Counted from the stretch's first letter, positions 435 to 18,526 are shown. The stretch: 59,495 nt of DNA from Promethearchaeota archaeon (GCA_048939765.1 JBHLPF010000022.1:1-59495), one strand, 5' to 3'. Numbers and translations are program-made. Notes: generated from the sequence alone by a model not told the origin.

Positions 435-2573
435 ATGAGTCCCAGTCAGCTAATGACAATGTCACGCAGAGCTACAGTTACATTGGAATGGTTGAGAAAA
501 GGGAGACCCCTCGACGACTCAACGATAATTGGATATCTCATGCGTGACTCTGTCAATACGGAAATCGGTGCGAAACTGAAATCCCTTGGAGGGAAGAAAG
601 GAGAAAGGAATTACAGAGATAGCCTCGTAAAATGGCAGTCCAACTTGGTGCTGATTCCCAGCCTATTCGAACGAGAGTTCAACCTTCCTGCACAAAGGGA
701 GAAGCCAATGGCATACAAGGAGATCGATGATGTTTTGAGCTGCTCACTAGTTCATCAAGAGGTTTCTAGACTTGACACTCCACTTATGCCCTCTGGCGAG
801 TCCTTGGAAGAGCAAATCAATTCATTGCTGCCTAAGTGTCTGAATAAGACCCTCAGCAAAAGAGCCAAGAAATCGGAGTATCTGTCCGAGAAGCGCGAAT
901 CGCTAGTCTATTTCCTCAGTCGAATTGCTATGGATTCCATGCCTAGCATTAGAGGATGGCCATTGGTACCAGTAGGTCTCAATAGTTTGTCAGCTGCGCT
1001 ATTCACGCTTCAATTCATTTCTCAAGCCGCACAAACTCAAATTCCATGGCTGGTGCTTATTTGGAAATATGAAATCGAGAGGTATCGAAATGAGCTATTG
1101 CTTGACCTCTTGGGGTCACTTTCGCATCAAATAACCGTGAAAGAAACAAGAGCAAAGATTGAACATATGAGTAGGGAAGTCAGGGAGGACTTGGGGGCAA
1201 GAGATCCTATCGTCGGATGGGCTCATGAATGGGAAGATCGACTCAAAGAGTTCAGTCCCAAGATGAAGCTTTTAGACTGCGAAGTAGCTGAAGAAGGAGG
1301 CCAGACCAATCCCGAATATGGTATGGGAAACGAGTCTTATGAGAATGAAATCTCGGATCTCAGGAAGAAATTGAGAGAAGAAATCCAACTAAGGATTCCT
1401 CGAAGCGGAGCTGCTCAGACACCGCAGACGCCACTTCCTCGTAGTATTTGGACTCAACTAAGCATTTCTACGGATGGTCCCCTTCCTTACATGTTCGAGG
1501 AACTCCTAAGTTCTGTCAGAGCTGAGTTGAATGTACTAGGTTTTCGACAATTGACTCAAACATGCGAATATCTATCAGATGTTGAAAAGCCGGGAAAACC
1601 AAGCGGAAGGGAAATTGCAGAAGCAGCCGATGTTGGAGCCAGATCTGCCAAAGTGAATTCGATTGGATTAACTCTCACTGAGAGATACATTCCCTCTTTG
1701 ATGGATTTGGGATTGAGATACAGATACATCTTCACAAGAATGCAGAAATCAGCATTGGACTCCCTTGGATTGGCTGAGCGAATAGCCATCTCAGAATCCA
1801 GCGCATATCAGATTGCAACAAAACATATAGAACCAACGACTTCTCATGGGCCTCAAAGTGAGGACTTGCCGGATGACTCCTTCCAGACAACTGTTGAAAC
1901 CGATATGATTTCGATGCGAATGGACTTGCTTGACGTCAAAGCTGGAAAATGGAAACAGCCGAAAGACATCTTGCTTCAAAAGGAAATCATCTCAAGTCGA
2001 GAAGCTAGGAAGACAAGGCAATGGCTCATTAGAAAGACATCACCACGAGTCAAGTCATACACCATGCCTACACAACGGGAGGTAGACCTTCTCAGTTTGA
2101 TTGGAAATGTAGACGCAAGTGCTAGAGGGATAAGGTGGCTATTCAACTCTATCAAGTTTCCATCAAGAACAGCGGAACATCTCATTGCTAGACTTCTAGG
2201 AAGCAATCGACTTAGGCTTCTCTATCATCCTTCCATAAAATATGCGGGTCTCCCAGAGGGGCTTCTTCTTGCCGCCAAATTCAGGACCGTCAAACGGCTC
2301 GATGAATTCGTTGAAGGATTGGCGGCCCTTTTTCCATTCGTGCATAGTCAATACAGCAGGACAGAGAAGAGCCTTGTTTCTCGAGTACGAATCGCTAGAT
2401 TCTCGAATCCAGAGGGTTTCATTAGAGATGAACTCCAAGAAGAGGATGCACTTAGAGTCATCGGCACAATTTCGAACAATCGAACGTACCACATGTCAGT
2501 GCTGCACAGACTGTATCAATCAAAGAATAAGCCTTGGAAAGACCCCTGGACGCATTCAGAGCCACTGCTCTAG
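435..2573 (+). CDS. Large hypothetical protein; C-terminal half resembles tandem Lrp/AsnC-type wHTH plus alpha/beta modules (putative regulator)
   Basis: 712 aa ORF. Two HTH-plus-linker segments: PSGREIAEAADVG...YIPSLMDLGLRYRYIF and FPSRTAEHLIARLLGSNRL...YHPSIKYAGLPEGLLL. The N-terminal ~340 aa are unassigned. Confidence 0.5.
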   Translation: MSPSQLMTMSRRATVTLEWLRKGRPLDDSTIIGYLMRDSVNTEIGAKLKSLGGKKGERNYRDSLVKWQSNLVLIPSLFEREFNLPAQREKPMAYKEIDDVLSCSLVHQEVSRLDTPLMPSGESLEEQINSLLPKCLNKTLSKRAKKSEYLSEKRESLVYFLSRIAMDSMPSIRGWPLVPVGLNSLSAALFTLQFISQAAQTQIPWLVLIWKYEIERYRNELLLDLLGSLSHQITVKETRAKIEHMSREVREDLGARDPIVGWAHEWEDRLKEFSPKMKLLDCEVAEEGGQTNPEYGMGNESYENEISDLRKKLREEIQLRIPRSGAAQTPQTPLPRSIWTQLSISTDGPLPYMFEELLSSVRAELNVLGFRQLTQTCEYLSDVEKPGKPSGREIAEAADVGARSAKVNSIGLTLTERYIPSLMDLGLRYRYIFTRMQKSALDSLGLAERIAISESSAYQIATKHIEPTTSHGPQSEDLPDDSFQTTVETDMISMRMDLLDVKAGKWKQPKDILLQKEIISSREARKTRQWLIRKTSPRVKSYTMPTQREVDLLSLIGNVDASARGIRWLFNSIKFPSRTAEHLIARLLGSNRLRLLYHPSIKYAGLPEGLLLAAKFRTVKRLDEFVEGLAALFPFVHSQYSRTEKSLVSRVRIARFSNPEGFIRDELQEEDALRVIGTISNNRTYHMSVLHRLYQSKNKPWKDPWTHSEPLL

Positions 2574-3548
2574 AGTCTCCTGATGAGTGCCAAATTGTTT
2601 CCACAACCTCATAAACTGAAGCTTAATCTGTTCTGCACGCTCTTCGACCATGAATATCGTCAACAACTCCATTAGCTTGGAAACTAATGGCGGATTAAGA
2701 TTGAGGATAATTCCATTTGTAGAAATGTAATTAGCCTCATCGAATGCCACTCTGCCATTCATAAACTCCCCACGTTCAATTGAGCCATAGCCTCGCGCTT
2801 TGAGCAATGATTCCAAACTCCCATGCCGCTGAAGGAGAAATATACCCTTCCTGGGGCCGATACCTTTCACTCCTTGCTTGTGAAAATCACATCCGCATAC
2901 CATAGCAAGATCCCTTAGACGCTCAATATCGAGCCCTGTGGTGTGTTCTAAATCAGCTAGTGTTGCTCTAAGTATCAGTCCTTTGGACAGCTGCAATTGC
3001 TTTGTCACATGGGGGCTACCAAATAGAAGTGCATCTGAGTCATTTGAAACAACCGTGTGTACTAGTCCGTCCCTGCATAGAGCAGCGGAAAACATCTCAG
3101 CCTCTGATGGCGCAGAGATTGCAGGCACACCTAAAACGCGGGCGAGTTCGCGTGTATGCTCCATAGCAAAGTACATTCTGAGAGAAGGGCTCTTCCTTAG
3201 TGGGTTGGCGATCTCCTCATCAAAGGGATCCCGAGTTTCTTTGAATTGCTCGTAGAAGGATTGTGCAGTGAGAATGAGTTCAGGATTTGGAGACCTCTTC
3301 ATACACTCAGGTGGACCGTCATAGACTAGGACAGGTAGCAGTGCGTTCTTCATGCACATTCTGACCAAGCTCAAAGTCATTCCTGCATGTTGAAGAGGAA
3401 TTCTACCGCTATCTCTTTTTGATGGCGGAATGACACTCACACGACGCGTTAAGTAGTTGGGCATATCTATCGCTATACTGCCAGGGGTCACTTCTTTCGC
3501 TTTGACCCAAACCCATGGGACTAGATTGCTCCAACCTGTCACACCCAT
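2556..3548 (-). CDS. FEN1/XPG-family structure-specific 5' nuclease paralogue with C-terminal PCNA-interacting (PIP) box
   Basis: Start MGVTGW at 3548 follows a GGTGA RBS. Catalytic acidic motifs IAID, VYDG, SEAE, SNDSDALLFG and GCDF; H3TH motif GVKGIGPRKG; C-terminal QETLEQWL PIP box. Confidence 0.9.
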   Translation of the reverse strand: MGVTGWSNLVPWVWVKAKEVTPGSIAIDMPNYLTRRVSVIPPSKRDSGRIPLQHAGMTLSLVRMCMKNALLPVLVYDGPPECMKRSPNPELILTAQSFYEQFKETRDPFDEEIANPLRKSPSLRMYFAMEHTRELARVLGVPAISAPSEAEMFSAALCRDGLVHTVVSNDSDALLFGSPHVTKQLQLSKGLILRATLADLEHTTGLDIERLRDLAMVCGCDFHKQGVKGIGPRKGIFLLQRHGSLESLLKARGYGSIERGEFMNGRVAFDEANYISTNGIILNLNPPLVSKLMELLTIFMVEERAEQIKLQFMRLWKQFGTHQETLEQWL

Positions 3549-3561
3549 ATATACATCACCA

Positions 3562-4287
3562 CTATCTGAAGGCCTGCAGACCATCTTTTGCTTCCATGAG
3601 AATCAGTGCCTGAGGTTCGGAAACTGCTGTACTCCGCTCGACCAAAACACGAATCAGATTCTTCCCTACGTCCAATCGATCAACTCTGACAACTGAGTCA
3701 ACAGCATGAGCAAGAACATTGCCACCAATGGGCGTGGGTCGACCTAAACTCCAGCTTCTTGAAGAATGGTCTGTCATCAGAAGATGAGCCCCAATATCAT
3801 TGACAAGCTCTCTCAAGACTTCAAGACAGTGGAAAAGCTCTCTTTGCCTTCCTGCGCTTCCTGGAGCACCTGAAAGATTCAGTACCCCCGTCAGACTATC
3901 TAGCACTATTACAGACACACAGCCCAAGTCGGGAATGGTTTTGCCAAGTTTCTCCAGGTCTGAAAGACTCAATACTCTTCCAACAACAACGCGACTGAGA
4001 ATCTTTGACACTTTGTTCTTGGAGATACACATCACTCGAGCCAATGTGGGACTGTAATTAGAACCTGAATCAATATAGACGGCATGTCCAGTATCAAGTT
4101 CAGCTGCGGCAATCGCTATGGCGTGAGCAAGCAACGTTAAGGGAGATCGCTCAGGGCCGTGAAGGAGACTCAATTGCTCCGGTACTAGAATGCCTCCGAG
4201 CAAGTCATCAAGTTGCCTCGGAGTAAGCGAGATTGTGGATTGTGTTTCGAAATCTAATGAATCAAGTGGCATTCGCAAGGGTGTCAT
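3562..4287 (-). CDS. RecA/Rad51-fold paralogue with inactivated Walker A
   Basis: LDDLLGG, degenerate P-loop HGPERSPLT (no GK), VYIDSG, Walker B VIVLDS and Rad51-type PIGGNVLAH. GGAGG RBS upstream. Confidence 0.85.
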   Translation of the reverse strand: MTPLRMPLDSLDFETQSTISLTPRQLDDLLGGILVPEQLSLLHGPERSPLTLLAHAIAIAAAELDTGHAVYIDSGSNYSPTLARVMCISKNKVSKILSRVVVGRVLSLSDLEKLGKTIPDLGCVSVIVLDSLTGVLNLSGAPGSAGRQRELFHCLEVLRELVNDIGAHLLMTDHSSRSWSLGRPTPIGGNVLAHAVDSVVRVDRLDVGKNLIRVLVERSTAVSEPQALILMEAKDGLQAFR

Positions 4288-5209
4288 TGACCTCCTTTAG
4301 GGTGGCATACCTGTGAAGTAATAGCGCATTGGCTAGTTCACCATCAGGAACTCTTTGAGAAACTAGACCGGGTGCTGCTGATTCAGGATAGATGATTCTA
4401 GGACCGGTCTTGCTTGGGAAAACAATCATGCGAGAGGGGAGGCTCCGTATCAGGTAATTGACGGCATCTTGATCAGTAGCTATGCAGTATTCAGCCATCG
4501 AAAGACCGTTTCTTTCATCAATAAGAGGGACCTTGAGTATTGCCTCCCGCAAGAGTGGTGAAACGTCACCCTTGATTATGATATTTGCTCTCAAGAGAAT
4601 ATCTCCGATCTGGGTCAAATTTACCCTCACAGAGTTTGCATCAATGAAGAGTGCGTCGCATTCATTGAAGTGAGTCAGTGAGATTGGTAGAAGCGGTCGG
4701 TCTCTCATCAGCGAGATGACCTTCTCCCGGCTTTCAGGAGTGAGCAGTACAACGTGATGTGATACATCCATGCTTATTACTGGACCGGACACTCTTGGGT
4801 CTCTGCTCAGCCGAGATATTGATGAGTCAGTAGACATCGATGCCATCCATTCTTTCAGGTTATTTGAGTCATACATCACTGAGCATCCAATAATCGTTAA
4901 TGCAGCACCTAAAAGAGAGGAAACCATCCCATAAGGCAATAGTCCAACGAATGCTACCACGGCAAGATATCCAGAGGATGCATAAGCAAGTATACCTAGA
5001 ATCGCAGAAAGTGTGTGTTTGGCGAATAGTCGTTTCAGCTGAATCAATGCCAATGTTGTGGCAACGGCAATAATCAAGGGAATGATGTTGCCGCTTCTAA
5101 AGGATATAACGACAAGTGCTACGGATGAGAGCAATTGGGCACCACCTGCCAAGGCAACAGCTCCTGCTATAGCCAATCCTATGATTTTCAGAATTCCTTT
5201 TCCAAACAA
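4262..5209 (-). CDS. Membrane protein with about 4 N-terminal TM helices and a soluble C-terminal domain, function unknown
   Basis: Four hydrophobic segments in the first ~115 aa. Likely TTG start at 5209 behind a GGAG RBS (ORF track starts at 5251). Confidence 0.75.
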   Translation of the reverse strand: MFGKGILKIIGLAIAGAVALAGGAQLLSSVALVVISFRSGNIIPLIIAVATTLALIQLKRLFAKHTLSAILGILAYASSGYLAVVAFVGLLPYGMVSSLLGAALTIIGCSVMYDSNNLKEWMASMSTDSSISRLSRDPRVSGPVISMDVSHHVVLLTPESREKVISLMRDRPLLPISLTHFNECDALFIDANSVRVNLTQIGDILLRANIIIKGDVSPLLREAILKVPLIDERNGLSMAEYCIATDQDAVNYLIRSLPSRMIVFPSKTGPRIIYPESAAPGLVSQRVPDGELANALLLHRYATLKEVNDTLANAT

Positions 5210-5874
5210 TTCGAGACCACTCCTTGCTGACGCGAAAGAAACAGTTGGCAAGCTCCGTTTTGCAGGACCTGCAGCTGCGCAATTTCGAAATTATTGCCAG
5301 ACTCTACAAAGGAAACGGAAGACGATTTGCGGGAAATATGCCTGCATACCTTGATGGTACTATCTGCCCATTTTGCTATTTCATTTGAAAACACTGGAAG
5401 ATTACCAGTTTCCGGATGGAATCTCATCTCACTAACAACAATGATGTCTATACCTCTTTCCAAGGACAATGCTCCCAAGGTTGGTAGCGCCTCCTCAATT
5501 AGCTCCTGCCCCCATAGGAGGGGATCAGTCCTAGACATGTCAAGCACCCTAGTAATGGGATCAATGACAATTAGAGACGTGTCTGGCGTTATCGCAATGG
5601 GCAGTCGTAACACGGCATCTAATGCCTGTTTGTGACCCTTTGTCATCATAACAGACACATTACTCTCCACTCCACTGAGATGCTTGATTGTTGCCTTCAG
5701 ATGAGGTATGAATCGTTTCTTTGAGTCGGCATTTATCCATTCCACGCGGGATGTCCGAGATGCATCAGCTGCGATAGCCGTCGCCAGCAGCGTTTTGCCG
5801 GAGCCTGCAGGTCCTATGACATGGATAATTCCTCCGAGCTCCAATAATGCGCGAAGGCTGTATTCACGAGTCAG
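5188..5874 (-). CDS. RadB-like short RecA-fold ATPase
   Basis: Walker A GPAGSGKT, WINAD, Walker B LIVIDP, IVVSE; no N-terminal HhH domain. Start uncertain: an in-frame CTG at 5874 lies just downstream of GGAGG, while the ORF track gives 5958. Confidence 0.8.
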   Translation of the reverse strand: MTREYSLRALLELGGIIHVIGPAGSGKTLLATAIAADASRTSRVEWINADSKKRFIPHLKATIKHLSGVESNVSVMMTKGHKQALDAVLRLPIAITPDTSLIVIDPITRVLDMSRTDPLLWGQELIEEALPTLGALSLERGIDIIVVSEMRFHPETGNLPVFSNEIAKWADSTIKVCRHISRKSSSVSFVESGNNFEIAQLQVLQNGACQLFLSRQQGVVSNCLEKEF

Positions 5875-7477
5875 AAGAGCTACCCTCCTCGAAGTCGCCC
5901 TGAGAAGATTGAACAAGATTTGTTGGCTCCTTACTTGCTGTGCTCGCAGCAACAACATCAGCCCCAGTGCGAATCTCTTCCTGAAACGCAGATTCGCCTA
6001 TTGTTACAGCGTTTATTACTGGGATTTCAACACCTTGAGATTTCATTGATGAGTGTAACATTGCATCAAGGAGATTTTGATCGAGCTCCTCATTCATCGA
6101 TGAATCGACTTTTTCAGCTCTTTCGGTGTTAGATGTTTCCGATGGAGGTTTTGTGTCAATCTCGTCAGGTTCAGCTAATGATCTGTCAATGGCATCAATC
6201 GTTCTCTTCATTGCTCTATTGTTGATCTTGTCATCAATCGTATCCTTGATATCAGGTCGAAGAGCTCCAGCGTTGTACAGTGCGTAGCTCAGATTGCCTA
6301 CATGTTCTATCATATCCTCGAAACTGAGAGGGGATGTGATATGAGCCGTAAGCGCAACATATGATAATGCTAATGATTCCTTTTCCACTTCAACTCCAAG
6401 AGCATCAAATAGACCTAGGAATCTTGATAGACCTTCATCTCCAACTCTTGGCGAATTCCCTTCCTCATTCCTGAGTGGAGCCAATCTTACGCATTCATCC
6501 AGAATGACACAAGCTGTTGCAATAGATTCTTGTAAGGCGCCAGCTTCGATAGTGTTTGCAAGATTTGCCAGTAGAGGGGATACAACAAAGCTGATGTCGC
6601 CTAATATTCGAAGATTGTCCTCGTTGGACTCTATGGACTGGTGAAGTCTTGTGGTGTCCCCAAGGGTTGAAAGAACCGCCTCTTCATTTCGCAAACACTT
6701 CTCAAATTCTCTCAAGTTGCCCTTGGAGCTTGAAAGCAGCCAGAGACCTGTTAGTAGTGACACCACCACCGTTATGAATGATAGGAGAGTTGAGCCAGAT
6801 TCAGAGAGCAAGATAATAGCTGTCGAGCCAACACCAATTGTACAAGCAGTCAAAGCCAATACTCCGGCCCATCCTCTCTTTATGCTGCGCTCCAACCAAT
6901 ACCACTTCTTCTGGCCGACCGCATGCTTGAGTTCAGGTAAGGATGATCGTGCATCACTTCTTCTTGCAAGGGCGAATTCCTCAATGGTCACTACTCTTCC
7001 TGAGTCAGTTAGCCAAGACAGATCCATTGAGGGCTTCACAGTCCTAGTCACAACATAGACCGTCCTCGTTGGATGAATCAACGAGACCTTCCTGCCTTTG
7101 CTTCCTCGTAGCATGAGCAGTGACACAGAATCCATAGGAGTTTTCAACTCCCTTCGTTCAAGATAGTCTCCTAATCCAACGTCATGCAAGACAGTTTCTA
7201 ACCCTCGATTGACACTCTCCAAAAGCGCGGCTCTCATGGCCAAGCCACTTTTGCCGAAACGGGCTGTCCTCAGGTCCAGAACGTAAACCAATTCTACATG
7301 GACACCTCGTGTTCCAGGGATGGGTTCCAAGTGTACAGCACTAATTAGTCCGTTTGGATACTCACATGTAAAATGGCCTGAAGCTCTGAGTACATCAATA
7401 AGATCACCACTTGGTCGTTCAGTTTCATTCCCAATACCTGCATTGGGTCGTGTGTTTTCGCGACTTGATATTGCCAC
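5864..7477 (-). CDS. Membrane-anchored protein (central TM hairpin, helical domain, acidic tail), function unknown
   Basis: 537 aa with two hydrophobic helices around aa 203-250 and an acidic low-complexity C-terminus. GTG start after GGAGGTG. Confidence 0.75.
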   Translation of the reverse strand: MAISSRENTRPNAGIGNETERPSGDLIDVLRASGHFTCEYPNGLISAVHLEPIPGTRGVHVELVYVLDLRTARFGKSGLAMRAALLESVNRGLETVLHDVGLGDYLERRELKTPMDSVSLLMLRGSKGRKVSLIHPTRTVYVVTRTVKPSMDLSWLTDSGRVVTIEEFALARRSDARSSLPELKHAVGQKKWYWLERSIKRGWAGVLALTACTIGVGSTAIILLSESGSTLLSFITVVVSLLTGLWLLSSSKGNLREFEKCLRNEEAVLSTLGDTTRLHQSIESNEDNLRILGDISFVVSPLLANLANTIEAGALQESIATACVILDECVRLAPLRNEEGNSPRVGDEGLSRFLGLFDALGVEVEKESLALSYVALTAHITSPLSFEDMIEHVGNLSYALYNAGALRPDIKDTIDDKINNRAMKRTIDAIDRSLAEPDEIDTKPPSETSNTERAEKVDSSMNEELDQNLLDAMLHSSMKSQGVEIPVINAVTIGESAFQEEIRTGADVVAASTASKEPTNLVQSSQGDFEEGSSSDS

Positions 7478-7478
7478 C

Positions 7479-9686: not shown

Positions 9687-12040
9687 CTTTCTGCTTCATC
9701 TCTCTGTGCAACTTGATGAAGGGCCATGCTGCCTTTCATGGTGATTCGGTAGTTCGTATACGAAACCGCCCCATGGACCTCATGACCCCTGAGTATCATA
9801 CCCGACTTTTCCAGCCTGGCCAGCACTCCACTGATGTCAGGGTCTCCTTTCACATCTCCTGAAAGGAGAAACTTTCGCATTGCTTCCTCTGTTAGTGGCT
9901 CATACCTCTCAAGTAGTCTAAGCATCTTGATGGCGGTATCCCTCTGTCCACCTGCGACTCTATCAATCAATGAATCGCCAAAAGCCACTCCCTCGTTGGG
10001 AGGCCCCCGAGGAATGATATCAGATATCCGTGTTTCGAGCTCCTCAGGACTAAGCCCGGAAAGAGGGGCGGTTTCATCCAACTCAACTGGCATGCATGTT
10101 TCGCCCTGATTCCTGACCAGAAGCACGACTCCGTTGGGCATAACTCTTAGATATGATGTTTCTCTGGATGATTGACGGGCTTTGCTATGGATACCAGATG
10201 AAACGACACTGATACCAAGCAATTCAACAGCAGTCTTTAAGTCCGGACTCTCACGAAGTCGGTGAGTGATGCAAGAGCTCAGTTTACCAATTGCACCAGG
10301 AGCCATGTCTACTGGATGGTCCAGAGCAACAATTGTGGGACCTCTCTGCAACATGTCCCGAAGCATCATCTCGCTCCATGAATCCCTCTTCATATATCGA
10401 CGGTTTCGAATCCTCATGTTCTCTGCATTCTCGAGAATGATAGTGAGATCCTGATCCTCTTGGAGCCCTGAAAGCTTGATGCACACGAGATCAAAGGCGA
10501 ATTTCTCCATGGGCAGATATCCTTGAGATAGCACCAGCACCCCGAGCTTGGTCTGAGCCAAATCACGCATGGAGATTGTCTGAGATCCATAGAAGGAACG
10601 CGATGCAGTTCCTTGGTGTAGAGATCTTATTGCCTCATAGCCTGACATGCTTTTATCAGATGGCTTCCGTTCGTTAGGCTCATCCACCTCTGAATAGGCA
10701 TTCATGACATCTGGAGTCTGGGTCAGTTGAACATCAGCCACCGTTGTATTGCCTAAGGCGATAGCACGATTGATTGCTAGTTCTAAGTCAGTTGCACCGC
10801 GAAGGTCAGTGCCAGCAATTACCTCTAGAGCAGTCATCAATTTGGACACATAGATATGTCTCGGAAGCCCTTCCGCGTCCATAGGATTTAGTACCAGATC
10901 TCTCCCAAGCTCAAATGATACTGCACCTTCAGAAAGGGATGCGAAATTCTTGGCATCACGTTCACTACTCACAATAATGACCCGCTTTCCATGTGACAGT
11001 AGCTGTTTCACGATCAAGGTGAGGGTATGTCTTCGCTCTTCTAAAGTCCCGCCGCAGACTAACAGTCCTGATCGGATATCATCGTGTGATAGACCAGTAG
11101 CAGGTCCGGGTCGAAGAGTTTCTGGATTTATCACGCGGCCTATGTAATAATCTCCTGCTCTGGGCTTTATGGGTGCAAGGAACTCACCTGGAACATTCGA
11201 CCCAATCTCAGATGCAAGCTCACTAGGAATCTGTATCAGCCACTCTGAGAGTTCGGTTCCAGCGGCATAGAATAATGGAAGCCTAGGGGTCATGTTCATC
11301 ACCCGCATATACGAAGCTAAAGATTTGGGCTTTATCTTAGACCAGTTTCCATCCGGAACTGCTGCCTTAATCGATGACTCGAATCTTTGAACCTGATCGA
11401 TATCCTGCGAGTGCCCCATAATCGAGACCCGGACCGACCAAAGGCCTCCGCGCCTGGTCATATAGGCATCCAATCCGCCGCTTGAAAGATAGTTCAAGTA
11501 TCCATCCAATCGCGAAGAAAGACGCTCTTCCTCCACGATGGATGAGAATTCTTCTGGCCTTGCTATCACTGATAGACAGAATCCCTTTGAGCTATCGATG
11601 GCTCTAACGAGTGCACTCACATTTCCCACCAATAGAGGGCCAGCCAATGGCAGCTGCAATCCTATCACGTTGCGATTGCCGGATGGCGTTTTACACTGAA
11701 CGACATCGTGTTCTCCGTTCACTGCGAAGGAAGTATCACTCTCGGGAACACGAACCCATTCTGATTCTTGCAGGGAGCGAACTTCTTGTGAGGCCCTCAG
11801 TTTGGGGACTAATATCGTAGCAAGAAGACTAGCAAGGGAAACCAGAGCAAGACTCAATGGCAATGCCGCAAGAATGACTGCTACGGTGATTGCTGTGATT
11901 GCATCACGACCGTGGGATGGTTTCACTCTTCTGTCATCCCATTGAAGTTCAATCCCACCACTCACAGTCATGGTGGGCTGAGTGATCTCCTTCAGTGGAT
12001 CAACTTCGGGCTCGGTACCGAGAATCAGACGCTTACCCAA
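9683..12040 (-). CDS. Membrane-anchored HerA/VirB4/CedB-like P-loop protein with degenerate ATPase motifs and C-terminal wHTH
   Basis: N-terminal TM segment. Family hallmarks appear in order: YYIGRV, LLVCGGTLEERR (Walker A position), LVLNPMD, IILENAEN (Walker B position), ALDHPVDM...CITHRL, YLRVMPNGVVLLV. wHTH ends YRITMKG. Confidence 0.7.
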   Translation of the reverse strand: MGKRLILGTEPEVDPLKEITQPTMTVSGGIELQWDDRRVKPSHGRDAITAITVAVILAALPLSLALVSLASLLATILVPKLRASQEVRSLQESEWVRVPESDTSFAVNGEHDVVQCKTPSGNRNVIGLQLPLAGPLLVGNVSALVRAIDSSKGFCLSVIARPEEFSSIVEEERLSSRLDGYLNYLSSGGLDAYMTRRGGLWSVRVSIMGHSQDIDQVQRFESSIKAAVPDGNWSKIKPKSLASYMRVMNMTPRLPLFYAAGTELSEWLIQIPSELASEIGSNVPGEFLAPIKPRAGDYYIGRVINPETLRPGPATGLSHDDIRSGLLVCGGTLEERRHTLTLIVKQLLSHGKRVIIVSSERDAKNFASLSEGAVSFELGRDLVLNPMDAEGLPRHIYVSKLMTALEVIAGTDLRGATDLELAINRAIALGNTTVADVQLTQTPDVMNAYSEVDEPNERKPSDKSMSGYEAIRSLHQGTASRSFYGSQTISMRDLAQTKLGVLVLSQGYLPMEKFAFDLVCIKLSGLQEDQDLTIILENAENMRIRNRRYMKRDSWSEMMLRDMLQRGPTIVALDHPVDMAPGAIGKLSSCITHRLRESPDLKTAVELLGISVVSSGIHSKARQSSRETSYLRVMPNGVVLLVRNQGETCMPVELDETAPLSGLSPEELETRISDIIPRGPPNEGVAFGDSLIDRVAGGQRDTAIKMLRLLERYEPLTEEAMRKFLLSGDVKGDPDISGVLARLEKSGMILRGHEVHGAVSYTNYRITMKGSMALHQVAQRDEAER

Positions 12041-12335
12041 CAGAAGCCCCTCCTGTGGTTGAAATGGATCTTATCTGGCGTCGCAACATGTCAAGCACGC
12101 GTTGCAATCGTTCCGCGTATACGGCGTCTGATCCTGACACGAGGAGCAAATTCTCTCCAACAAGAAGAATCTCTGGCATGTTTCCAAGATCTGATGATCC
12201 ATGAGCAACTAGTGTCGGGTTTTTTGTCAGCACTAGCCAGTTATAGCTATGGCCTATCTCAAGTGAATGCATCACTGCTTCGTGTGTCACGCCAAATGGA
12301 AGCTCGATGGCTATCCTATCACCTGACTTGAGCAT
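12033..12335 (-). CDS. Small hypothetical alpha/beta protein
   Basis: About 100 aa, overlapping both neighbours; ATG at 12335 after GGAGGTG. Confidence 0.7.
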   Translation of the reverse strand: MLKSGDRIAIELPFGVTHEAVMHSLEIGHSYNWLVLTKNPTLVAHGSSDLGNMPEILLVGENLLLVSGSDAVYAERLQRVLDMLRRQIRSISTTGGASVG

Positions 12336-12918
12336 ATGGCTCAACACCTCCAGAGGTCACCATCAATAGATCATCCAATCCTGCTAGATCAATAGGCATG
12401 TGAGGATAGGCGGCTCTCATTGAACTCTCAAGGACTGCTGCGTCAGTGACAATTTCATCTGCAATCGAAGATGCCCTCTTTATCCCATCTAAGAACCGAA
12501 TGCCTCTTCGCGCAACAAGCATCCCCGCACGGGTGATACCATCTCCTGCGGGTCTGCAGAGAAAGAACCGAACTTCTCCATTCTTCTTCCCATCATATCG
12601 CGCATGAAGAGCTCGAAGCACCTTGGATGCTGAATGGCTAAGGTCTAGTCCGATGGGAACGCTTGTCATCAATCGTCCTGCTAAGACCTCCAGCGTAAAT
12701 GGCCGAAGAATGGCAAGGACACCTCGCTGATCATCCCAAACAATGAGAGGTTGTTGATTGTTCCTCCAACTCAGAGCCAAGAGTCCTGCAGATACTATAG
12801 TGATTAAGGATAGAAGAACGTCCATATTTCCCCAAGACACCCAGATTCCAAGAATTGCACCAAGTATCAATGTGCCAAGGCCAATCCATCTAATCTCCCA
12901 TCGCTCGTACCATGCCAA
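12319..12918 (-). CDS. Membrane protein (N-terminal TM hairpin), apparently paralogous to the N-terminal region of the 785 aa HerA/VirB4-like protein
   Basis: Two TM helices at aa 10-52; LESSMRAAYP matches FESSIKAAVP in the 785 aa protein. Confidence 0.7.
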   Translation of the reverse strand: MAWYERWEIRWIGLGTLILGAILGIWVSWGNMDVLLSLITIVSAGLLALSWRNNQQPLIVWDDQRGVLAILRPFTLEVLAGRLMTSVPIGLDLSHSASKVLRALHARYDGKKNGEVRFFLCRPAGDGITRAGMLVARRGIRFLDGIKRASSIADEIVTDAAVLESSMRAAYPHMPIDLAGLDDLLMVTSGGVEPYAQVR

Positions 12919-12919
12919 T

Positions 12920-14875
12920 TCAACTTCCCTCCCTCAATGCTATGAACTGTGAAATCGCAGCCTTCAGCTCAGCAACATCCCCAAAGGGCCAGATATCAGC
13001 TACCATGTCATCACCAAACACCCGGACATGCTTGAGAAAACGCTTGTCTAGAAGAACGACAATACCCCAGTCCTCAGGCGCTCTTCTGAGTCGACCAAGA
13101 ACTTGGGCGACCTGACGAATGGATGGGACCAGCGCTCCGTAATAGTATCCGGCTCCTTCTCCAAATCTGCCATCATAGAACTCTTGCAGTGCTCTTTGGT
13201 AGCTTGTGGGAGGGGAGAATGGAATCCCGACTCCAATGATTAAATCTATCATACTGGAGCCGCCTTTCACCAGATCGACCCCCTCTGAGTATTTCCCTCC
13301 GAAGACACAGAAGATGGCGTGAGGACCAATTTCCAAGGCTTCTGCAACGGTTTCGATGCGGTCGCCTCTCTCTTCAACGAGAGTTCCGCGATATCCCGAG
13401 TCAATGCCGTAGCTCAAGACTTCATGGAGAATCTTGTAGCTTGGAAACGCAATAAGGGCGCTCTTATTTGCTGGAACCGTTGTGAGTACGGTGTTTATTC
13501 TATCAGCAAGTGCACGCCAGAGGTCGGGACCTCTTGCCTGATACTTGGTTGTGTGCTCTCTGTCGATGAGCACAAGTCTGGTAGATCGGGGATATGGACT
13601 TGCTAAGTCCTCCGTTATGGCACCCCCAACGCCCAATAGTCTTGCGTAATGGTCAAGGGGTCTCAGAGTTCCAGACATCAGGAGCGCGGATCTTGCGCCC
13701 CTAAGGACAGGTGCAGAAAGACCAGATGCGTTTAGGGGCCGAATCATCAGCGTTGCTCTCGAAGCGGTTAGCGCTTCCTCCCAGGATCGTTTCACATTGA
13801 GCGTCACATGCCATCCTTCGCTTCTGGTAGATAGATGGGCCACAAAGAGGAACTCGACAAGTCTGTCCAGTGGTGTTTCCATTGAAACAGCCACCTCGGG
13901 GTCACCGATGTTGGGGCTAGTAGTTTCATGCATAAGCCGCAAATCCGACTCTTCTATGAATCTAGGAGCCACATCCCACTTGGCTAGTGTACGCTCTGAT
14001 CTTCTATTCATACCGTCAAGGTTGAGCATCATTGTTTCGTAGAGGAAGTCCACAGCCTCTCCAATCCAACTGATGCTGGTTTCCTTGACAATCTCCGACT
14101 TATGATCCCTTAACCATCGGAGGTCTTCACCATTCAGCCTGGCTGTTTCCGAGTCAAGCGCATGATCTGACAGGTTGTGGGCTTCATCAACAAGCAAATC
14201 AACATCATGGAGTGAGAGTCCCAATGATGATAGAAGAGCCTCGCGCACCCTTGACCTGAACATGTAGCTATATGGTCCAATTATGACCTTACTCTGTCTC
14301 GCGCACCAACGCATCACCTCATACGGGCACACGCCCTCCGTGGTGCAGAGGTCTTCCACTCGCTCACGTGTCACAACGCCCGTGTTTAGTAAGTCCTCAA
14401 CACGTTCTCTAACCCACTCCCTGATGACACTTCGACCATCGCCTGAGCTTTTTCTATAGACATTGTGGTAATATGTACATTGCCCAGTCTTAATCATCGA
14501 TGCGCAGGCTCGCATGAAGCCTGTAGATGTGTCGGAGTCAATCTCGCTTCGAATTGGACACATATGGATTCTCGAAACCATAGTGGTGGCCGTAAGTTCA
14601 GGCATCAGTGCCCTAAGGACATCAAGTTCAATCTCGAATACCCTTGACTGACTATGAGTTCGTGTCAGTACAATCAATCTTGAGCTAGCGTCACTGCCCC
14701 TTGCAGCAAGATATCCTGATAGAACTGCCACCGTCTTTCCGACGCCACAATCAGCGGAGAGTAATCCCACTGTCTTGGATGAAAAGACTTCTGCAGCAAA
14801 CCGTACAGCCTTGTCTTGATGCAATCTAGGTGTATAGGGAAACCACATGAGAGGATCAGTAACTGCAGTACTCAA
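12920..14875 (-). CDS. XPD/Rad3/DinG-family Fe-S cluster 5'-3' DNA helicase
   Basis: ADCGVGKT, LTRTHSQ, four Fe-S cysteines (HMCP, RACA, GQCTYY, GVCPYE), VDEAHNL, MSGTL, AFPSY, GGKYSEGVD, GIPF, QVLGRLRRAPEDWGIVVLLDKRF. Confidence 0.95.
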   Translation of the reverse strand: MSTAVTDPLMWFPYTPRLHQDKAVRFAAEVFSSKTVGLLSADCGVGKTVAVLSGYLAARGSDASSRLIVLTRTHSQSRVFEIELDVLRALMPELTATTMVSRIHMCPIRSEIDSDTSTGFMRACASMIKTGQCTYYHNVYRKSSGDGRSVIREWVRERVEDLLNTGVVTRERVEDLCTTEGVCPYEVMRWCARQSKVIIGPYSYMFRSRVREALLSSLGLSLHDVDLLVDEAHNLSDHALDSETARLNGEDLRWLRDHKSEIVKETSISWIGEAVDFLYETMMLNLDGMNRRSERTLAKWDVAPRFIEESDLRLMHETTSPNIGDPEVAVSMETPLDRLVEFLFVAHLSTRSEGWHVTLNVKRSWEEALTASRATLMIRPLNASGLSAPVLRGARSALLMSGTLRPLDHYARLLGVGGAITEDLASPYPRSTRLVLIDREHTTKYQARGPDLWRALADRINTVLTTVPANKSALIAFPSYKILHEVLSYGIDSGYRGTLVEERGDRIETVAEALEIGPHAIFCVFGGKYSEGVDLVKGGSSMIDLIIGVGIPFSPPTSYQRALQEFYDGRFGEGAGYYYGALVPSIRQVAQVLGRLRRAPEDWGIVVLLDKRFLKHVRVFGDDMVADIWPFGDVAELKAAISQFIALREGS

Positions 14876-15498
14876 GTATTAGCCTCCAGATGTAGACAGG
14901 ACTCGCTCGTGTGGATTCTGAACCGCAGAGAGAAGTACTTTCGTAGAAGCTGATGGAACTGCCACATCAATGAAGGCGATTTGTATCCTATTTCCTTGTT
15001 TGCCATTCGCTCCACGATTTCTGGATTGAACCCTTTCTGACGAGCAATCTTCCAGAACCAGGCTTCCACCTCTCGCCTAGTGGAGCATATGTGACTCACT
15101 GAGCTCTCTATAAGGTTAGTAAGAGATCGTACAGCCTCCTTAGGCTTGCTGGGCAACTGTGAAACTCTTACTCCTGTTGGTAGATAGACGGCAATTCCCT
15201 CAGCGCTGTCCAGATATATCTCATGAGGGACCCCCTTTGTCCCCCTCAATGTTTCAAGGAGAGAAAGCAGCCTCGGAAGTTGCGGCAACGCCGGTTTGTT
15301 GAGGTCAGGGTCTCTCCAATCAACCCTAGTGACGACGTGAATTTCAGGATCTGGAGCTGCACATTTCTCTAGGACTGTTACTCGATGTGATGTTTCTCTC
15401 ATGAGGAGATTCACAAGATTGATCATTGTGTAGTTCGCGACAGTCGGAGGAGTTCGCGGAACCCAGACATAGTTGCTCTCCGATTCGCTACCTGCCAA
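14872..15498 (-). CDS. Hypothetical protein (208 aa)
   Basis: TTG start 1 nt after the upstream stop, behind GGAGGTG; TTGA overlap with the XPD-like gene. Confidence 0.75.
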   Translation of the reverse strand: MAGSESESNYVWVPRTPPTVANYTMINLVNLLMRETSHRVTVLEKCAAPDPEIHVVTRVDWRDPDLNKPALPQLPRLLSLLETLRGTKGVPHEIYLDSAEGIAVYLPTGVRVSQLPSKPKEAVRSLTNLIESSVSHICSTRREVEAWFWKIARQKGFNPEIVERMANKEIGYKSPSLMWQFHQLLRKYFSLRFRIHTSESCLHLEANT

Positions 15499-15499
15499 C

Positions 15500-15943
15500 C
15501 TACCACACCTCCATTGGAATGGTGACTAGTCCACCATTCTTGATTACTTCACCCTCCGAAACGAGAGAGTCAAGGAATGTCATTGCACGAGAGATATCGA
15601 TACCAGCATCGCTGCATTCTCTCATGACGTCTTCAATCGATACCGGTCGGCCTCGATTTAGATCAACTAGCGCTTCGATGATGTAGTAGACACGCCTCTT
15701 AATGCCCAGTCCCCTTCCTCCACTCCGGGGCTTGGCATTCTGCCGCGACTCTATCACAAGCTCACGGACACTCGACTGCGCTTCCTGAACTGTTACCGCA
15801 TAGATTGTTCCAGGAACATGAAGGATCAGACTTCTGCATAGACTGCATCTCGACTCCTCTTGCTCATTCTCGACTAGTGCGTATCCGATATTTGTGCAAC
15901 TGGGACACTGGTAGACTCTGAACATCCCTCGTTCCGAGGTCAC
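15500..15943 (-). CDS. Zn-ribbon plus C-terminal winged-helix protein (DUF1922/DUF5817-like architecture), putative DNA binder
   Basis: CPSC...CSLC; C-terminal wHTH VSIEDVMRECSDAGIDISRAMTFLDSLVSEGEV; GTGA overlap with the RadA-like gene. Confidence 0.75.
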   Translation of the reverse strand: MTSERGMFRVYQCPSCTNIGYALVENEQEESRCSLCRSLILHVPGTIYAVTVQEAQSSVRELVIESRQNAKPRSGGRGLGIKRRVYYIIEALVDLNRGRPVSIEDVMRECSDAGIDISRAMTFLDSLVSEGEVIKNGGLVTIPMEVW

Positions 15944-17007
15944 CCAGCCTCACCTGCCTTAGCTCGCGGCGCCTCAGCCTCCTCGAGTTCAATCTCAGTC
16001 TCCTCTTCAGTTACGCCTTGCTTCTCAAAGTAGTCAAGAATCCCTGGCTCCTTCTCCTTCTTGCTCTTGGAGTCCTGGTACATCCCACCCCAGCCTACAA
16101 CCATTTCTACGTCGAACTCGGGAAGCCCCGCATTGTCTATCAGTTGGATCTTTCGTTTATCGTCCTTTGTCCTGCGTGTGTAGAATCTGTAATCACTGGC
16201 ATGCGATAGTATGTGGCCACCGATTGGAGCATTATCATACCCACCGTAGGTGCTTATCTTGGACATCACTTGATTAGTGTAGATGAATATGGCATCCGTG
16301 GCCTTGGCGGTTCTCCTCATCTGATTTAGGAGCGCATTCATCTCCTGCTGACGGATTCTGAGGGACTCCAGACCTGTGTACTCAGCCCGAAAGAGTCCCG
16401 TGAACGAGTCTACGACTACGAGAACGTAGTCTTGCTCGCTGCAGAGCTGGGGAATGGACTCGAATATCTCCTGAATTTGATCAGATAGGAAGACCTCTGC
16501 CCGTCCTATGTTTCCCAGTGTGATGTCAGGATCAAGAGCCCATCGAATTGCATTGGCTCTAATAGTGTAGGGCTTGAACGATGACTCGCTGTCCAGCCAC
16601 AACACTCTGCCTTCGAGACCCCCTTGGTCTCTCGGGAGTTGTGCTCGCACTGCCAAATGCGCACTGAATTGTGTCTTCCCCCCTCTTGCAGGACCATAGC
16701 ATTCAACGATAGATCCAACTTCGATTCCTCCAAAGAGCGCTTCATCCATTTTTTCTATGCCGGTCTTTAAGCGGGACTTTGACTCCATCTCTTTCTCCAC
16801 CTCGAGGCCAGACTTGAAGCCGTGCATTCCAAGGAGAATCCTGGCATTTCGGATGATCTTCTCGATTGTGCCTTCACCCAGCTTTGTCTTTTTTTGAAGT
16901 TCAACAGGGTTTTGAACGGCCAGCAACTCAGCCGTTGTGACAAATGCCTCCCTCAGCTTCTTTGCCGCAGCTGGTCCGACGCCAGTCACTCCCTCCAACT
17001 CAGTCAT
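15940..17007 (-). CDS. radA: RadA/Rad51-family recombinase (divergent full-length paralogue)
   Basis: N-terminal HhH (GVTGVGPAAAKKL), Walker A GPARGGKT, WLDSESSF, Walker B VVVDS, LFRAEY, RQQ, TNQV, PIGGHILSHAS, acidic tail. Confidence 0.9.
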   Translation of the reverse strand: MTELEGVTGVGPAAAKKLREAFVTTAELLAVQNPVELQKKTKLGEGTIEKIIRNARILLGMHGFKSGLEVEKEMESKSRLKTGIEKMDEALFGGIEVGSIVECYGPARGGKTQFSAHLAVRAQLPRDQGGLEGRVLWLDSESSFKPYTIRANAIRWALDPDITLGNIGRAEVFLSDQIQEIFESIPQLCSEQDYVLVVVDSFTGLFRAEYTGLESLRIRQQEMNALLNQMRRTAKATDAIFIYTNQVMSKISTYGGYDNAPIGGHILSHASDYRFYTRRTKDDKRKIQLIDNAGLPEFDVEMVVGWGGMYQDSKSKKEKEPGILDYFEKQGVTEEETEIELEEAEAPRAKAGEAG

Positions 17008-17471
17008 ACCAAAGCCTCCTCAACAATTGTGTCAGACAAGGGCCCATGGATTGGAACGAGTCTGAGAAACGATGGAATCTCATCCAGAGGGACCACTATC
17101 TCACCGCTAGACACATACACATGACCGGGCGATAGCAAGCGGGCCACATCTTTCTGACGGGCCAATGGCACTTTGAAGTAGAGACCTTCAGGGCAGAATT
17201 CGCCTGTTACACTCACAAACCCTCCCAGTGCGTCATATGCAGATCCTATTGCACCATCTCCAAACGTGGGGCTTGTGCCTGGTTCTGCTGGTTCAATGTT
17301 GCCATGATGAAGTAATAGTTCTAAAAGATCTTCAATAAACGGCCCCCATAGCCACTTCGGACTACGATGACTATTGATTTCAAGTCCTGCAGCTGCCCCC
17401 GCGAGCCATGCCGCGCTGGGCAAATCCACAGGAGAAATCGCATGCCTCTTCAATACTTCATCTGCGAGCAT
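17004..17471 (-). CDS. Hypothetical protein (155 aa)
   Basis: TAATG overlap with the upstream gene and ATGA overlap with the RadA-like gene; GGAGG RBS. Confidence 0.75.
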   Translation of the reverse strand: MLADEVLKRHAISPVDLPSAAWLAGAAAGLEINSHRSPKWLWGPFIEDLLELLLHHGNIEPAEPGTSPTFGDGAIGSAYDALGGFVSVTGEFCPEGLYFKVPLARQKDVARLLSPGHVYVSSGEIVVPLDEIPSFLRLVPIHGPLSDTIVEEALV

Positions 17472-18220
17472 TAAATTGGAACCTCCTCTCCGATCCTGAT
17501 TCCACTGACAACCTCGGGGAGTGCCTTCAGTTCATTCAGCCACTCTTTCAAGCCAACAACCATCGGGTCGATCAGCTGACCATTGCCAAGGACTGAACTC
17601 ATCAGAGCATTTGATGCGAGAACGATTCTCTCCAGGCATATTGCACGATCAGCGTAGGACATTGGAGTGTGCCAAGGCATCGTGATATAGCCCGACTCTC
17701 CTGCCAAGAATTCGCGTATGTCTGTATTCCAGTCACCTATAACGGGGTCTCTCTTCAGAGTCCCCAACAGAACGTCGACCCAAGACTCCCATTTCTTCAT
17801 GAAGTTGTAGATTGAAGTTGATAGAGTCCTAAGAGACCCATCCCTGCGATTTGACTGTCCCTCAAACACCAAGATCAGGCGTGTGACATCATCGCTGGCA
17901 ATCGCACTGACCGCGAGTCCTTTGTTATATGATGAGGCCATGAGAGAGATAGCTGGGACAAGTCCAAGAATGTCACAAGGCAAGTACCTACCTGGAATGT
18001 CCTCCTCGAAGCGATCAAATGTCGATAGAATATCACTACGAAGTCCGATGACCAAGATGAGCCAAGCATCACGCTCTGAACCCAGGTATCTAATTCGTGC
18101 CTTGATGATGTTTCTGTCACGATTGTTGAACATGACCTGCAGAGGTAAGCTCACATCAACTAATCCTCTGCTTTTCCTTTCACATGCATTTGACAGCTGC
18201 TCTTGAAGTCGTGTGATCAT
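17471..18220 (-). CDS. Hypothetical protein (249 aa), first gene of the 15-gene operon
   Basis: Open frame coupled to the next gene; GGTG upstream of the ATG. Confidence 0.75.
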   Translation of the reverse strand: MITRLQEQLSNACERKSRGLVDVSLPLQVMFNNRDRNIIKARIRYLGSERDAWLILVIGLRSDILSTFDRFEEDIPGRYLPCDILGLVPAISLMASSYNKGLAVSAIASDDVTRLILVFEGQSNRRDGSLRTLSTSIYNFMKKWESWVDVLLGTLKRDPVIGDWNTDIREFLAGESGYITMPWHTPMSYADRAICLERIVLASNALMSSVLGNGQLIDPMVVGLKEWLNELKALPEVVSGIRIGEEVPI

Positions 18221-18307
18221 TACATCAACACCATGACGGAATCATCTGCTCTACGCTAGTTCAGATTATCTTAATGGCATGAGAGAAGCTCATTGCCCTT
18301 TGTGGGA

Positions 18308-18316
18308 GATATAAAG
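18308..18316 (-). promoter_or_regulatory. Candidate archaeal TATA box for the minus-strand operon
   Basis: Minus strand reads CTTTATATC, about 90 nt upstream of ATG 18220, in an AT-rich divergent intergenic region. Confidence 0.4.
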
Positions 18317-18526
18317 AGCTAAAACTCACCCCCTCTATTTTTTGAGGCCTTATTGATTCAAATTACAGAATATAACTACTTGTTCTCTCCTATTATATAA
18401 CAGAATTGTGAGATTCATGCAGTCAGACTGAGTTTGTTATGGATCTTGCAATGTACTGGCTGCAGCTAGATGATAGTAGAGTAAATATGTGGTTAGTTAG
18501 CAGAATGCAAAGAGGAGGTAGGAAAG

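Follow-up and report, generated by a model that had tools for sequence, protein, structure and literature searches.

A stretch of 59,495 nucleotides from a Promethearchaeota archaeon (GCA_048939765.1, JBHLPF010000022.1:1-59495), referred to here as the window and numbered from its first letter, was analysed for a cluster of recombination and membrane protein genes. The host genome is a metagenome-assembled genome of Thorarchaeota (Asgard archaea) with a size of 3.37 Mb and a completeness of 88.5%. The cluster comprises 15 consecutive co-oriented open reading frames (ORFs), named g1 to g15, on the minus strand at 2556-18220 (Table 1). Spacing at the first ten junctions is +1 to -29 nt; at the last four, the longest ORFs overlap by 23-95 nt. 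A first-pass annotation, made by a model from the sequence alone, had described 15 overlapping or nearly abutting genes forming an operon that couples a recombination toolkit to membrane proteins, and all ORFs were found at the positions and on the strand it gave. Scans against Pfam and NCBIfam recognised a family for six of the 15 proteins (g3, g6, g10, g12, g14 and g15) and for none of the other nine.

The conservation of motifs was scored over 22-29 orthologues, depending on the protein. In g3 the Walker A motif (GxxxxGKT), the Walker B motif and the F-x-x-G polymerisation motif are kept in 27 sequences. The g6 protein carries DEAD_2 and Helicase_C_2 domains, and its Walker A, its DEAH box and four Fe-S cysteines are kept in 28 sequences. 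Helicase motifs I, II and VI of g10 are kept together with a CxCx13CxH SWIM finger (26 sequences), as are every acidic active-site motif of g15 and its C-terminal box QxxLxx[WF][ILV] (22 sequences), which resembles a PCNA-interacting protein (PIP) box. Judged by these motifs, the operon paralogues of RadA, XPD, Hel308 and FEN1 look catalytically active. Walker A and Walker B are both conserved across the orthologues of g12; g14, which matches Rad51 of Pfam with an E value of 6e-10, retains Walker B and has HGPERxPLT, with no GK[ST], at the Walker A position (25 sequences). By hhalign, g3, g12 and g14 are mutually linked at 95-99% probability (g12-g3 97.7%, g14-g3 99%), and a trio of RecA-fold proteins is predicted in the operon, consisting of a full recombinase (g3), a short active ATPase (g12) and a short ATPase-dead protein (g14). 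The assignments of the first-pass annotation to RadA, XPD, a SWIM-bearing Hel308, two short RecA-fold proteins and a FEN1 with a PIP box agree with the family scans and conserved motifs, the last in the form of a PIP-like tail, and its Zn-ribbon protein was recovered as g4, with two CxxC pairs in 26 of 28 orthologues. One g10 orthologue (L065:10271-12451, genome G022) contains a single in-frame stop and represents either a sequencing error or a pseudogene.

Canonical copies of RadA, FEN1, Hel308 and XPD are all located on contigs other than that of the operon, and a canonical herA-nurA pair is also present elsewhere in the same genome. Canonical RadA (contig C85) scores 465 bits with TIGR02236, compared with 243 bits for g3 (242.8, below the equivalog cut-off of 361); with the looser model NF003301 g3 barely passes (267 vs 259), and in Pfam it has HHH_5 and Rad51 domains (187 bits for the latter). 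The scores are 441 bits for canonical FEN1 vs about 115-116 bits for g15 (TIGR03674, cut-off 352), and 619 bits for canonical Hel308 vs 282 bits for g10, which matches only positions 10-419 of the 704 in the Hel308 model NF040935, with no full-length match. Canonical XPD (contig C93) reaches 317 bits vs 87 + 69 for g6, the TIGR00604 score of which (158.8) lies below the cut-off of 246.95.

Maximum-likelihood trees of RadA, Hel308 and FEN1 were calculated, and both the canonical copies and those linked to the module were included from five further Asgard genomes. The canonical Asgard clade of RadA (support 95/98) leaves out the g3 clade (100/99), that of Hel308 (98/98) leaves out g10, and that of FEN1 (100/99) leaves out the g15 clade (100/99). 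In the Hel308 tree g10 groups outside the canonical clade with paralogues from other Asgard lineages that also bear a SWIM finger. All three trees were rooted at the midpoint and have long paralogue branches; g3, g10 and g15 are read as old duplications or old acquisitions and not as a dated event. The proposal that the operon holds paralogues distinct from the housekeeping copies is borne out by these results. A homologue search with g3 returned only Thorarchaeota paralogues. Among solved structures, the nearest relatives in the PDB rankings are Hel308 for g10 (ahead of ASCC3 and Brr2), archaeal XPD for g6 (ahead of Rad3, CHL1 and FANCJ) and FEN1 for g15 (ahead of Rad2, EXO1 and GEN1). An affinity to the eukaryote-only members (Mer3/HFM1-like, FANCJ/RTEL1, EXO1/GEN1) was also considered and dropped, since the archaeal prototypes rank higher in these lists. 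In the genome of the window, the canonical XPD gene adjoins a RadB-like gene (G000:C93:1949-5293; L003, L019, L020), so a pairing of XPD with a RecA-fold protein exists outside the operon too.

Gene order was compared in 28 related loci, 27 from the family of the window and one from a single genome of a sister family. As far as the contig or fetched stretch extends, the order g1-g15 is identical in 27 of the 27 family loci at 25-76% protein identity, and the sister-family genome keeps g3-g6 and g9-g11, with a FEN1 paralogue farther along the same contig; the synteny that had been proposed as a check is therefore kept within the family and partial in the sister family. In most genera a GH3-family gene lies divergently upstream and a gene for a 712-aa protein convergently downstream, the latter with 23-33% identity across most family loci. 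The ratios of nonsynonymous to synonymous substitution rates (dN/dS) against four congeners are 0.07-0.21 for g7, 0.15-0.19 for g8 and 0.05-0.12 for g9. Because gene order and flanking genes are conserved across the family loci, the operon appears to be chromosomal and vertically inherited. An origin from a mobile element was rejected, as the genes on either side of the operon are the same across genera. PHROGs and PADLOC were additionally scanned with the nine uncharacterised operon proteins and the neighbouring 712-aa protein; none of the ten matched PHROGs, and nine had no match in PADLOC, the sole match being a weak one of LmuB to the zinc motif of g4. The first-pass view of a chromosomal rather than mobile locus was thus upheld.

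A profile of g9 was found in 53 of 85 family genomes, and many of the misses are incomplete assemblies. The count in the window's own genus is low (5 of 16 genomes). Frequent loss was considered as the cause of this count and was set aside as at least partly an assembly artefact, as shown by one apparent miss beside a gap of 400 N. In this congener, a single-scaffold genome (L095, G004:C1:1482000-1501900), a partial g10 (from residue 116) and g11-g15 are located in a stretch that holds the 400 N, and no upstream half of the operon was found there, which suggests an assembly gap or join.

The protein g9 was modelled with AlphaFold (AF2) at a predicted local distance difference test score (pLDDT) of 72.6. 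Its best structural match is the C-terminal domain of VirB4 (4ag5; Z 28.9, root-mean-square deviation 2.8 Å over 323 residues), and HerA (4d2i) matches with a Z of 24.9; DndH-C and TrwB are among the next matches. Full-length TrwK/VirB4 aligned to residues 102-674 of the model, from which it follows that the N-domain of g9 is VirB4-like as well. At the Walker A position GG(T)xxxR stands instead of GxxGxGK[ST] in all 29 orthologues, and the Walker B motif is likewise altered. The short Asgard forms of g9 also have no Walker A lysine. A profile search run exhaustively over 1.84 billion cluster representatives gave 139 clusters at E <= 1e-30. About 125 of the top 150 clusters (50% identity) have no lysine at Walker A, and live relatives with GxTGxGKT and hhhhEEAH first appear at about rank 128. 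The family occurs in three sizes of about 520, 780 and 1270 aa. Since the Walker A lysine is lacking from all orthologues and also from about 125 related clusters, g9 is predicted not to hydrolyse ATP and on this basis cannot be a translocation motor. Proteins of 1230-1340 aa, presumably of the Loki type (L045, G239:C30:770-4552; P0230-P0311), carry a dead VirB4/HerA-like domain in mid-protein (about 530-1110) with TNGTxxSRE at Walker A, and their neighbours (510 and 1590 aa) match no hidden Markov model (HMM) of the operon.

Modelling of pairwise complexes, which the first-pass annotation had recommended, yielded an interface between g9 and g10. Residues 286-785 of g9 and 396-735 of g10 were modelled in three runs, with ipSAE scores of 0.63, 0.63 and 0.71 compared with 0.02 for the best control (margin +0.61). 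In a calibration, 58 of 80 solved complexes but only two of 110 mismatched pairs attained this ipSAE value. At least 26% of the contacts are common to the three runs, and the pLDDT of the partner is at least 71. On the side of g9 the interface is formed by the winged helix (709-769) and a patch at 475-486, and F483, Y484, G485, L709, Y713, L716, E754 and T767 are invariant in 25 g9 orthologues; on the side of g10 it is formed by residues on either side of the SWIM finger (497-532 and 616-649). The model supports, and is not proof of, a binding of g9 to g10, in which the winged helix of g9 would serve to dock a protein and not to read DNA.

Hydrophobic segments were found in g7 (199 aa), g9 (785 aa), g11 (537 aa) and g13 (329 aa), in agreement with the four membrane proteins of the first-pass annotation, the last of which is 329 aa and not about 315 aa long. 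In g7, g9 and g11 the hydrophobic helices are paired, joined by a loop of 2-11 residues and K/R-rich on both flanks; those of g7 span residues 12-28 and 34-50, with a connecting loop of 5-7 residues. These three proteins are read as hairpin anchors whose soluble parts lie on one side, presumably the cytoplasmic one, with little or no ectodomain. The AF2 model of g11 (pLDDT 79.1; predicted template modelling score, pTM, 0.70) has two hydrophobic segments inside a long helical hairpin and a disordered acidic tail. No Foldseek match was obtained for it at E <= 0.001; its VIA-wide matches (Z up to 11) are confined to the hairpin at 186-284 and are of a generic coiled-hairpin kind, and in the Atlas the feature search was blank and the shape search gave small unnamed proteins at TM-scores of at most 0.53. 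A homologue of g11 is present in the sister family. Comparison of the membrane proteins with Ced/Ted, VirB and ComEC/DprA families had been advised as well. It recovered a VirB4/HerA/CedB-like fold for g9, but no VirB6/CedA-type channel, pilin, ComEC or DprA was recognised by family scans of the operon proteins and the g11 fold search, g7 and g13 being judged by sequence alone. No VirD4-like family was detected among the operon proteins in the family, PADLOC and PHROGs scans, and no small pilin-like ORF with two transmembrane (TM) segments was recognised in the operon; g7 has two such segments but also a soluble domain of 150 aa.

Five loci with the short form of g9 were fetched from other Asgard families. 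The dead-ATPase form of about 520 aa is always preceded by a protein of 250-357 aa, mostly with a clear hydrophobic anchor. The HMM of g7 and that of the g9 N-domain both match the GGxW-containing domain of this TM partner, which implies that g9 of Thorarchaeota is a fusion and g7 a retained partner paralogue. A SWIM-bearing Hel308 paralogue is located close to the TM partner and the dead ATPase in all five loci, a g12-like protein is nearby in three of the five, and several of the loci have RadA, FEN1 or XPD paralogues at distances of a few to about 30 kb. The association of the dead ATPase with SWIM-Hel308 and recombination paralogues is thus wider than Thorarchaeota. In a 5.8-Mb Asgard genome of another family, a loose island of about 35 kb (G160:C11:597000-633000; L042, L092, L093, L103, L107) holds a FEN1 paralogue, the TM partner and dead ATPase, SWIM-Hel308, a g12-like protein, two RadA paralogues and an XPD-like gene; these families match those of the Thorarchaeota operon but are dispersed.

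Because of the overlapping junctions, the identical gene order and flanks and dN/dS values of 0.05-0.21, the 15 genes are treated here as one unit. On balance, and with considerable reservation, its products probably constitute a dedicated machine for homologous recombination and DNA processing that is anchored on the cytoplasmic side of the membrane, whatever the source of the DNA. In such a machine a passive membrane platform, possibly a ring, would be built from g9, its paralogue and partner g7, and g11 and g13 with their hairpin anchors. The winged helix and the invariant FYG patch of g9 would, as in the model, clasp the SWIM-bearing C-terminal half of g10, and the 3'-5' helicase would thereby be recruited to the platform. 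DNA would be opened or resected by g10 and the 5'-3' Fe-S helicase g6, g12 and g14 would act as mediators resembling Rad51 paralogues in the loading of the recombinase g3, and the PCNA-binding FEN1 paralogue g15 would trim flaps after strand invasion and synthesis. The machine would have no translocation motor of its own, and its substrate could be DNA that enters the cell or chromosomal DNA kept at the membrane.

Several points weigh against this reading. Co-transcription of the genes and assembly of their products are inferred, and a single pairwise interface, that of g9 and g10, was modelled. Eight of the 15 proteins (g1, g2, g4, g5, g7, g8, g11 and g13) are without an assigned function, and g11 is without a recognisable fold. 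The topology is drawn from crude hydropathy and a positive-inside reading, and the number of TM segments in g13 is uncertain (three to five). The conserved arginine at the position of the Walker lysine might still permit nucleotide binding by g9, so its passive role is likewise a deduction. In a family genome with a completeness of 92% (G011) g9 and g10 were not found, and only the canonical Hel308 was present; the system is either dispensable in some fairly complete family genomes or was missed in their assemblies.

The first-pass annotation had favoured DNA uptake or exchange. In a cell-to-cell system of this kind, similar to Ced/Ted, the membrane proteins would make up a conduit derived from type IV secretion, and incoming single-stranded DNA would pass directly to the helicases and the recombinase and be integrated. 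The part of this proposal that stood is the membrane-anchored protein g9, VirB4-like in both its N- and C-terminal domains and thus comparable to CedB/CedD and TedB (PMC9905601, PMC11868833). It would also make functional sense for imported DNA to be served by its own recombinase set next to a membrane apparatus, and the module is widespread in Asgard archaea. However, the remainder was not supported, as the only motor-like protein has its Walker A lysine replaced family-wide and is predicted to be ATPase-dead, no VirB6/CedA-like, VirB2/pilin-like, VirD4-like, ComEC or DprA family was detected (g7 and g13 by sequence only), and the loops of g7, g9 and g11 outside the membrane are only a few residues long, leaving no live motor, recognisable channel, pilin or ectodomain. 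Uptake of this kind is therefore considered unlikely. A broader version, in which an Asgard-wide membrane-anchored apparatus for DNA exchange and recombination, with an ATP-dead VirB4 descendant as hub and with a private recombinase, mediators resembling Rad51 paralogues, two helicases of opposite polarity and a PCNA-linked flap nuclease, receives DNA from another cell by contact, fusion or vesicles, recombines it and is a prokaryotic forerunner of the envelope-tethered, paralogue-assisted recombination of eukaryotic meiosis, is put forward as a speculation that is decidedly unlikely to hold.

The genes might instead be merely co-regulated, as a damage-inducible regulon of spare repair enzymes and unrelated membrane proteins that form no physical machine. 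Such a regulon would fit the mixture of functions that is common in archaeal operons, the eight proteins of unknown function and the modelling of only one interface. It is nevertheless judged very unlikely, since the 15-gene order is strict across genera at 25-76% identity, the dead ATPase and SWIM-Hel308 stay together in distant Asgard families despite rearrangement, and the g9-g10 model exceeds the controls by +0.61 through invariant g9 residues. A defence function, in which a HerA-like scaffold, helicases and a nuclease destroy viral or plasmid DNA at entry, is suggested by the HerA-fold scaffolds of Sir2-HerA, DUF4297-HerA and TdpAB complexes among the structural neighbours of g9, by the Hel308-like HamB of Hachiman as a distant match of g10, and by a sub-threshold match of g11 to SLATT_2 (E 0.0047). 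This function appears highly improbable, given that PADLOC was blank except for the weak LmuB match to g4 and that the operon is inherited vertically with the same flanks across genera, unlike the patchy islands typical of defence systems. Moreover, a recombinase with a polymerisation motif, two proteins resembling Rad51 paralogues and a flap nuclease predicted to bind PCNA point to repair or recombination and not to degradation.

Eukaryotes combine the same enzyme families as the operon in HELQ and the RAD51 paralogues (BCDX2), FANCJ/RTEL1 and FEN1/EXO1; shared are Hel308-type and XPD-type helicases, a recombinase with short paralogues (one of them ATPase-dead) and a PCNA-binding XPG-family nuclease. 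To our knowledge, eukaryotes have no membrane hub of the g9 type. In contrast to the eukaryotic set, the operon proteins are closest in sequence to archaeal prototypes, and no specific affinity to eukaryote-only paralogues was seen. HerA-NurA and the HerA-scaffold defence complexes resemble g9 in their FtsK-HerA superfamily core and in the logic, proposed here for g9, of a ring platform that carries a nucleic-acid enzyme, but the genome has its separate canonical herA-nurA, and g9 is membrane-anchored and predicted to be dead, with a helicase and not a nuclease as modelled partner. The inner-membrane ATPases of type IV secretion, VirB4/TrwK/TrbE (PDB 4ag5, 7o43, 8rtd), are the best fold match of g9 and similar in size (about 800 aa). 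Unlike these, g9 has a dead P-loop and Walker B, its own N-terminal membrane hairpin and an extra C-terminal winged helix; it has no VirB3, B6, B8 or B10 neighbours, and its modelled partner is a Hel308-type helicase.

In a search of the literature no paper was found that describes the operon; the nearest described systems are Ced of Sulfolobales (CedA, A1, A2, B, D, E) and Ted of Thermoproteales, DNA-import systems that represent domesticated type IV secretion (PMC9905601, PMC11868833). Like the operon, these are chromosomal and archaeal, with a membrane-anchored VirB4-family protein and a functional tie to homologous recombination. The VirB4 N-domain is split or duplicated in CedB/CedD, as it is here in g7 and the g9 N-domain, or in the separate TM partner elsewhere in Asgard archaea. 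In contrast to the intact GxxGxGK[ST] NTPase of Ced/Ted, g9 has no Walker A lysine; the VirB6-like channel (CedA/CedE/TedA) and the VirB2-like pilin (CedA1/TedC) were not recognised here, with g7 and g13 judged by sequence, and recombination enzymes are part of the operon but not of Ced/Ted. The comparison was made at the level of fold and published description.

The locus thus described would mean that purifying selection maintains an ancient second recombination toolkit in Thorarchaeota and, in simpler form, in further Asgard lineages; in this toolkit RadA, two short RecA-fold paralogues, XPD, Hel308 and FEN1 are wired to membrane proteins via an inactivated VirB4-like hub. Should the proposed machine exist, it would constitute a new cellular system whose testable parts are the g9-g10 contact, the loading of g3 by g12/g14 and the binding of g15 to PCNA, and g9 would be a defined and conserved example of a motor protein turned scaffold. 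Among known prokaryotes, Asgard archaea are the nearest relatives of eukaryotes, and the locus touches the open question of the origin of recombination, paralogue-assisted regulation and sex-like DNA exchange. The operon also bears on a survey of RadA duplications in Asgard archaea, in which second RadA clades were described for Heimdall-, Njord-, Gerd- and Loki-type genomes and the text of which makes no mention of Thorarchaeota (PMC12722695).

Table 1. Genes of the candidate operon and adjoining features in the window
Feature	Position	Strand	Description
g1	17471..18220	-	249-aa soluble protein; first gene of the operon; orthologues in 23 loci
g2	17004..17471	-	155-aa soluble protein; no Pfam/NCBIfam match; orthologues in 22 loci
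g3	15940..17007	-	full-length RadA paralogue with helix-hairpin-helix (HhH) N-domain, RecA core and acidic tail
g4	15500..15943	-	147-aa Zn-ribbon protein; two CxxC pairs kept in 26/28 orthologues; putative C-terminal winged helix (first-pass annotation)
g5	14872..15498	-	208-aa soluble protein; orthologue in the sister-family locus L036
g6	12920..14875	-	XPD/Rad3-type Fe-S helicase paralogue
g7	12319..12918	-	199 aa; N-terminal two-helix membrane hairpin and soluble domain related to the g9 N-domain
g8	12033..12347	-	104-aa protein; no Pfam/NCBIfam match
g9	9683..12040	-	785-aa membrane-anchored protein of VirB4/HerA fold; predicted dead P-loop; C-terminal winged helix
g10	7479..9686	-	Hel308-type superfamily 2 (SF2) helicase paralogue; divergent C-terminal half with SWIM zinc finger
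g11	5864..7477	-	537 aa; N-terminal alpha/beta domain, central membrane hairpin, C-terminal helical bundle, acidic tail
g12	5188..5958	-	short RecA-fold ATPase (predicted); Walker A and B intact
g13	4262..5251	-	329 aa; hydrophobic N-terminal region of about 4 segments and soluble domain of about 200 aa
g14	3562..4287	-	RadB-like RecA-fold protein; degenerate Walker A; predicted ATPase-inactive
g15	2556..3584	-	FEN1/XPG-family nuclease paralogue with PIP-like C-terminus; likely true start at the MGV codon at 3548
712-aa gene	435..2573	+	convergent neighbour directly downstream of g15; may or may not be a member of the system
upstream intergenic region	18221..18526	-	presumed operon promoter and 5' leader

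The start codon of g12 is uncertain because its ORF overlaps g11 by 95 nt. For g1 there were no matches in Pfam, NCBIfam, PADLOC, PHROGs or PDB profiles, and sequence-profile searches of the PDB yielded nothing credible for g1, g5 and g11. Pfam scans of the orthologue sets of g1, g5 and g13 gave single stray matches only. In the Atlas feature search the nearest clusters to g5 (window 14872-15498) are unnamed fungal ones at 0.92, which is within the chance range of shuffled sequences. No family was found for the 712-aa protein, the PADLOC and PHROGs scans included.

Upstream of g1, a TTTATAT stretch is located at 18309-18315 on the minus strand, about 90 nt before the start codon. A GGTG motif resembling a ribosome binding site is present 5-10 nt before the g1 start (window 18221-18235) in most orthologues, which implies a leadered first gene dependent on a Shine-Dalgarno sequence. 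By-eye comparison of 24 loci revealed no common promoter or operator motif upstream of g1 apart from GGTG. Between the operon and its GH3 neighbour, a 529-aa polytopic membrane protein with no Pfam family is encoded at window 18527-20116 on the plus strand. A tblastn search for this protein was blank in the fetched upstream flanks of other genera, where the GH3 gene sits at most about 1 kb from g1, and the 529-aa gene looks like an insertion specific to the genus of the window.

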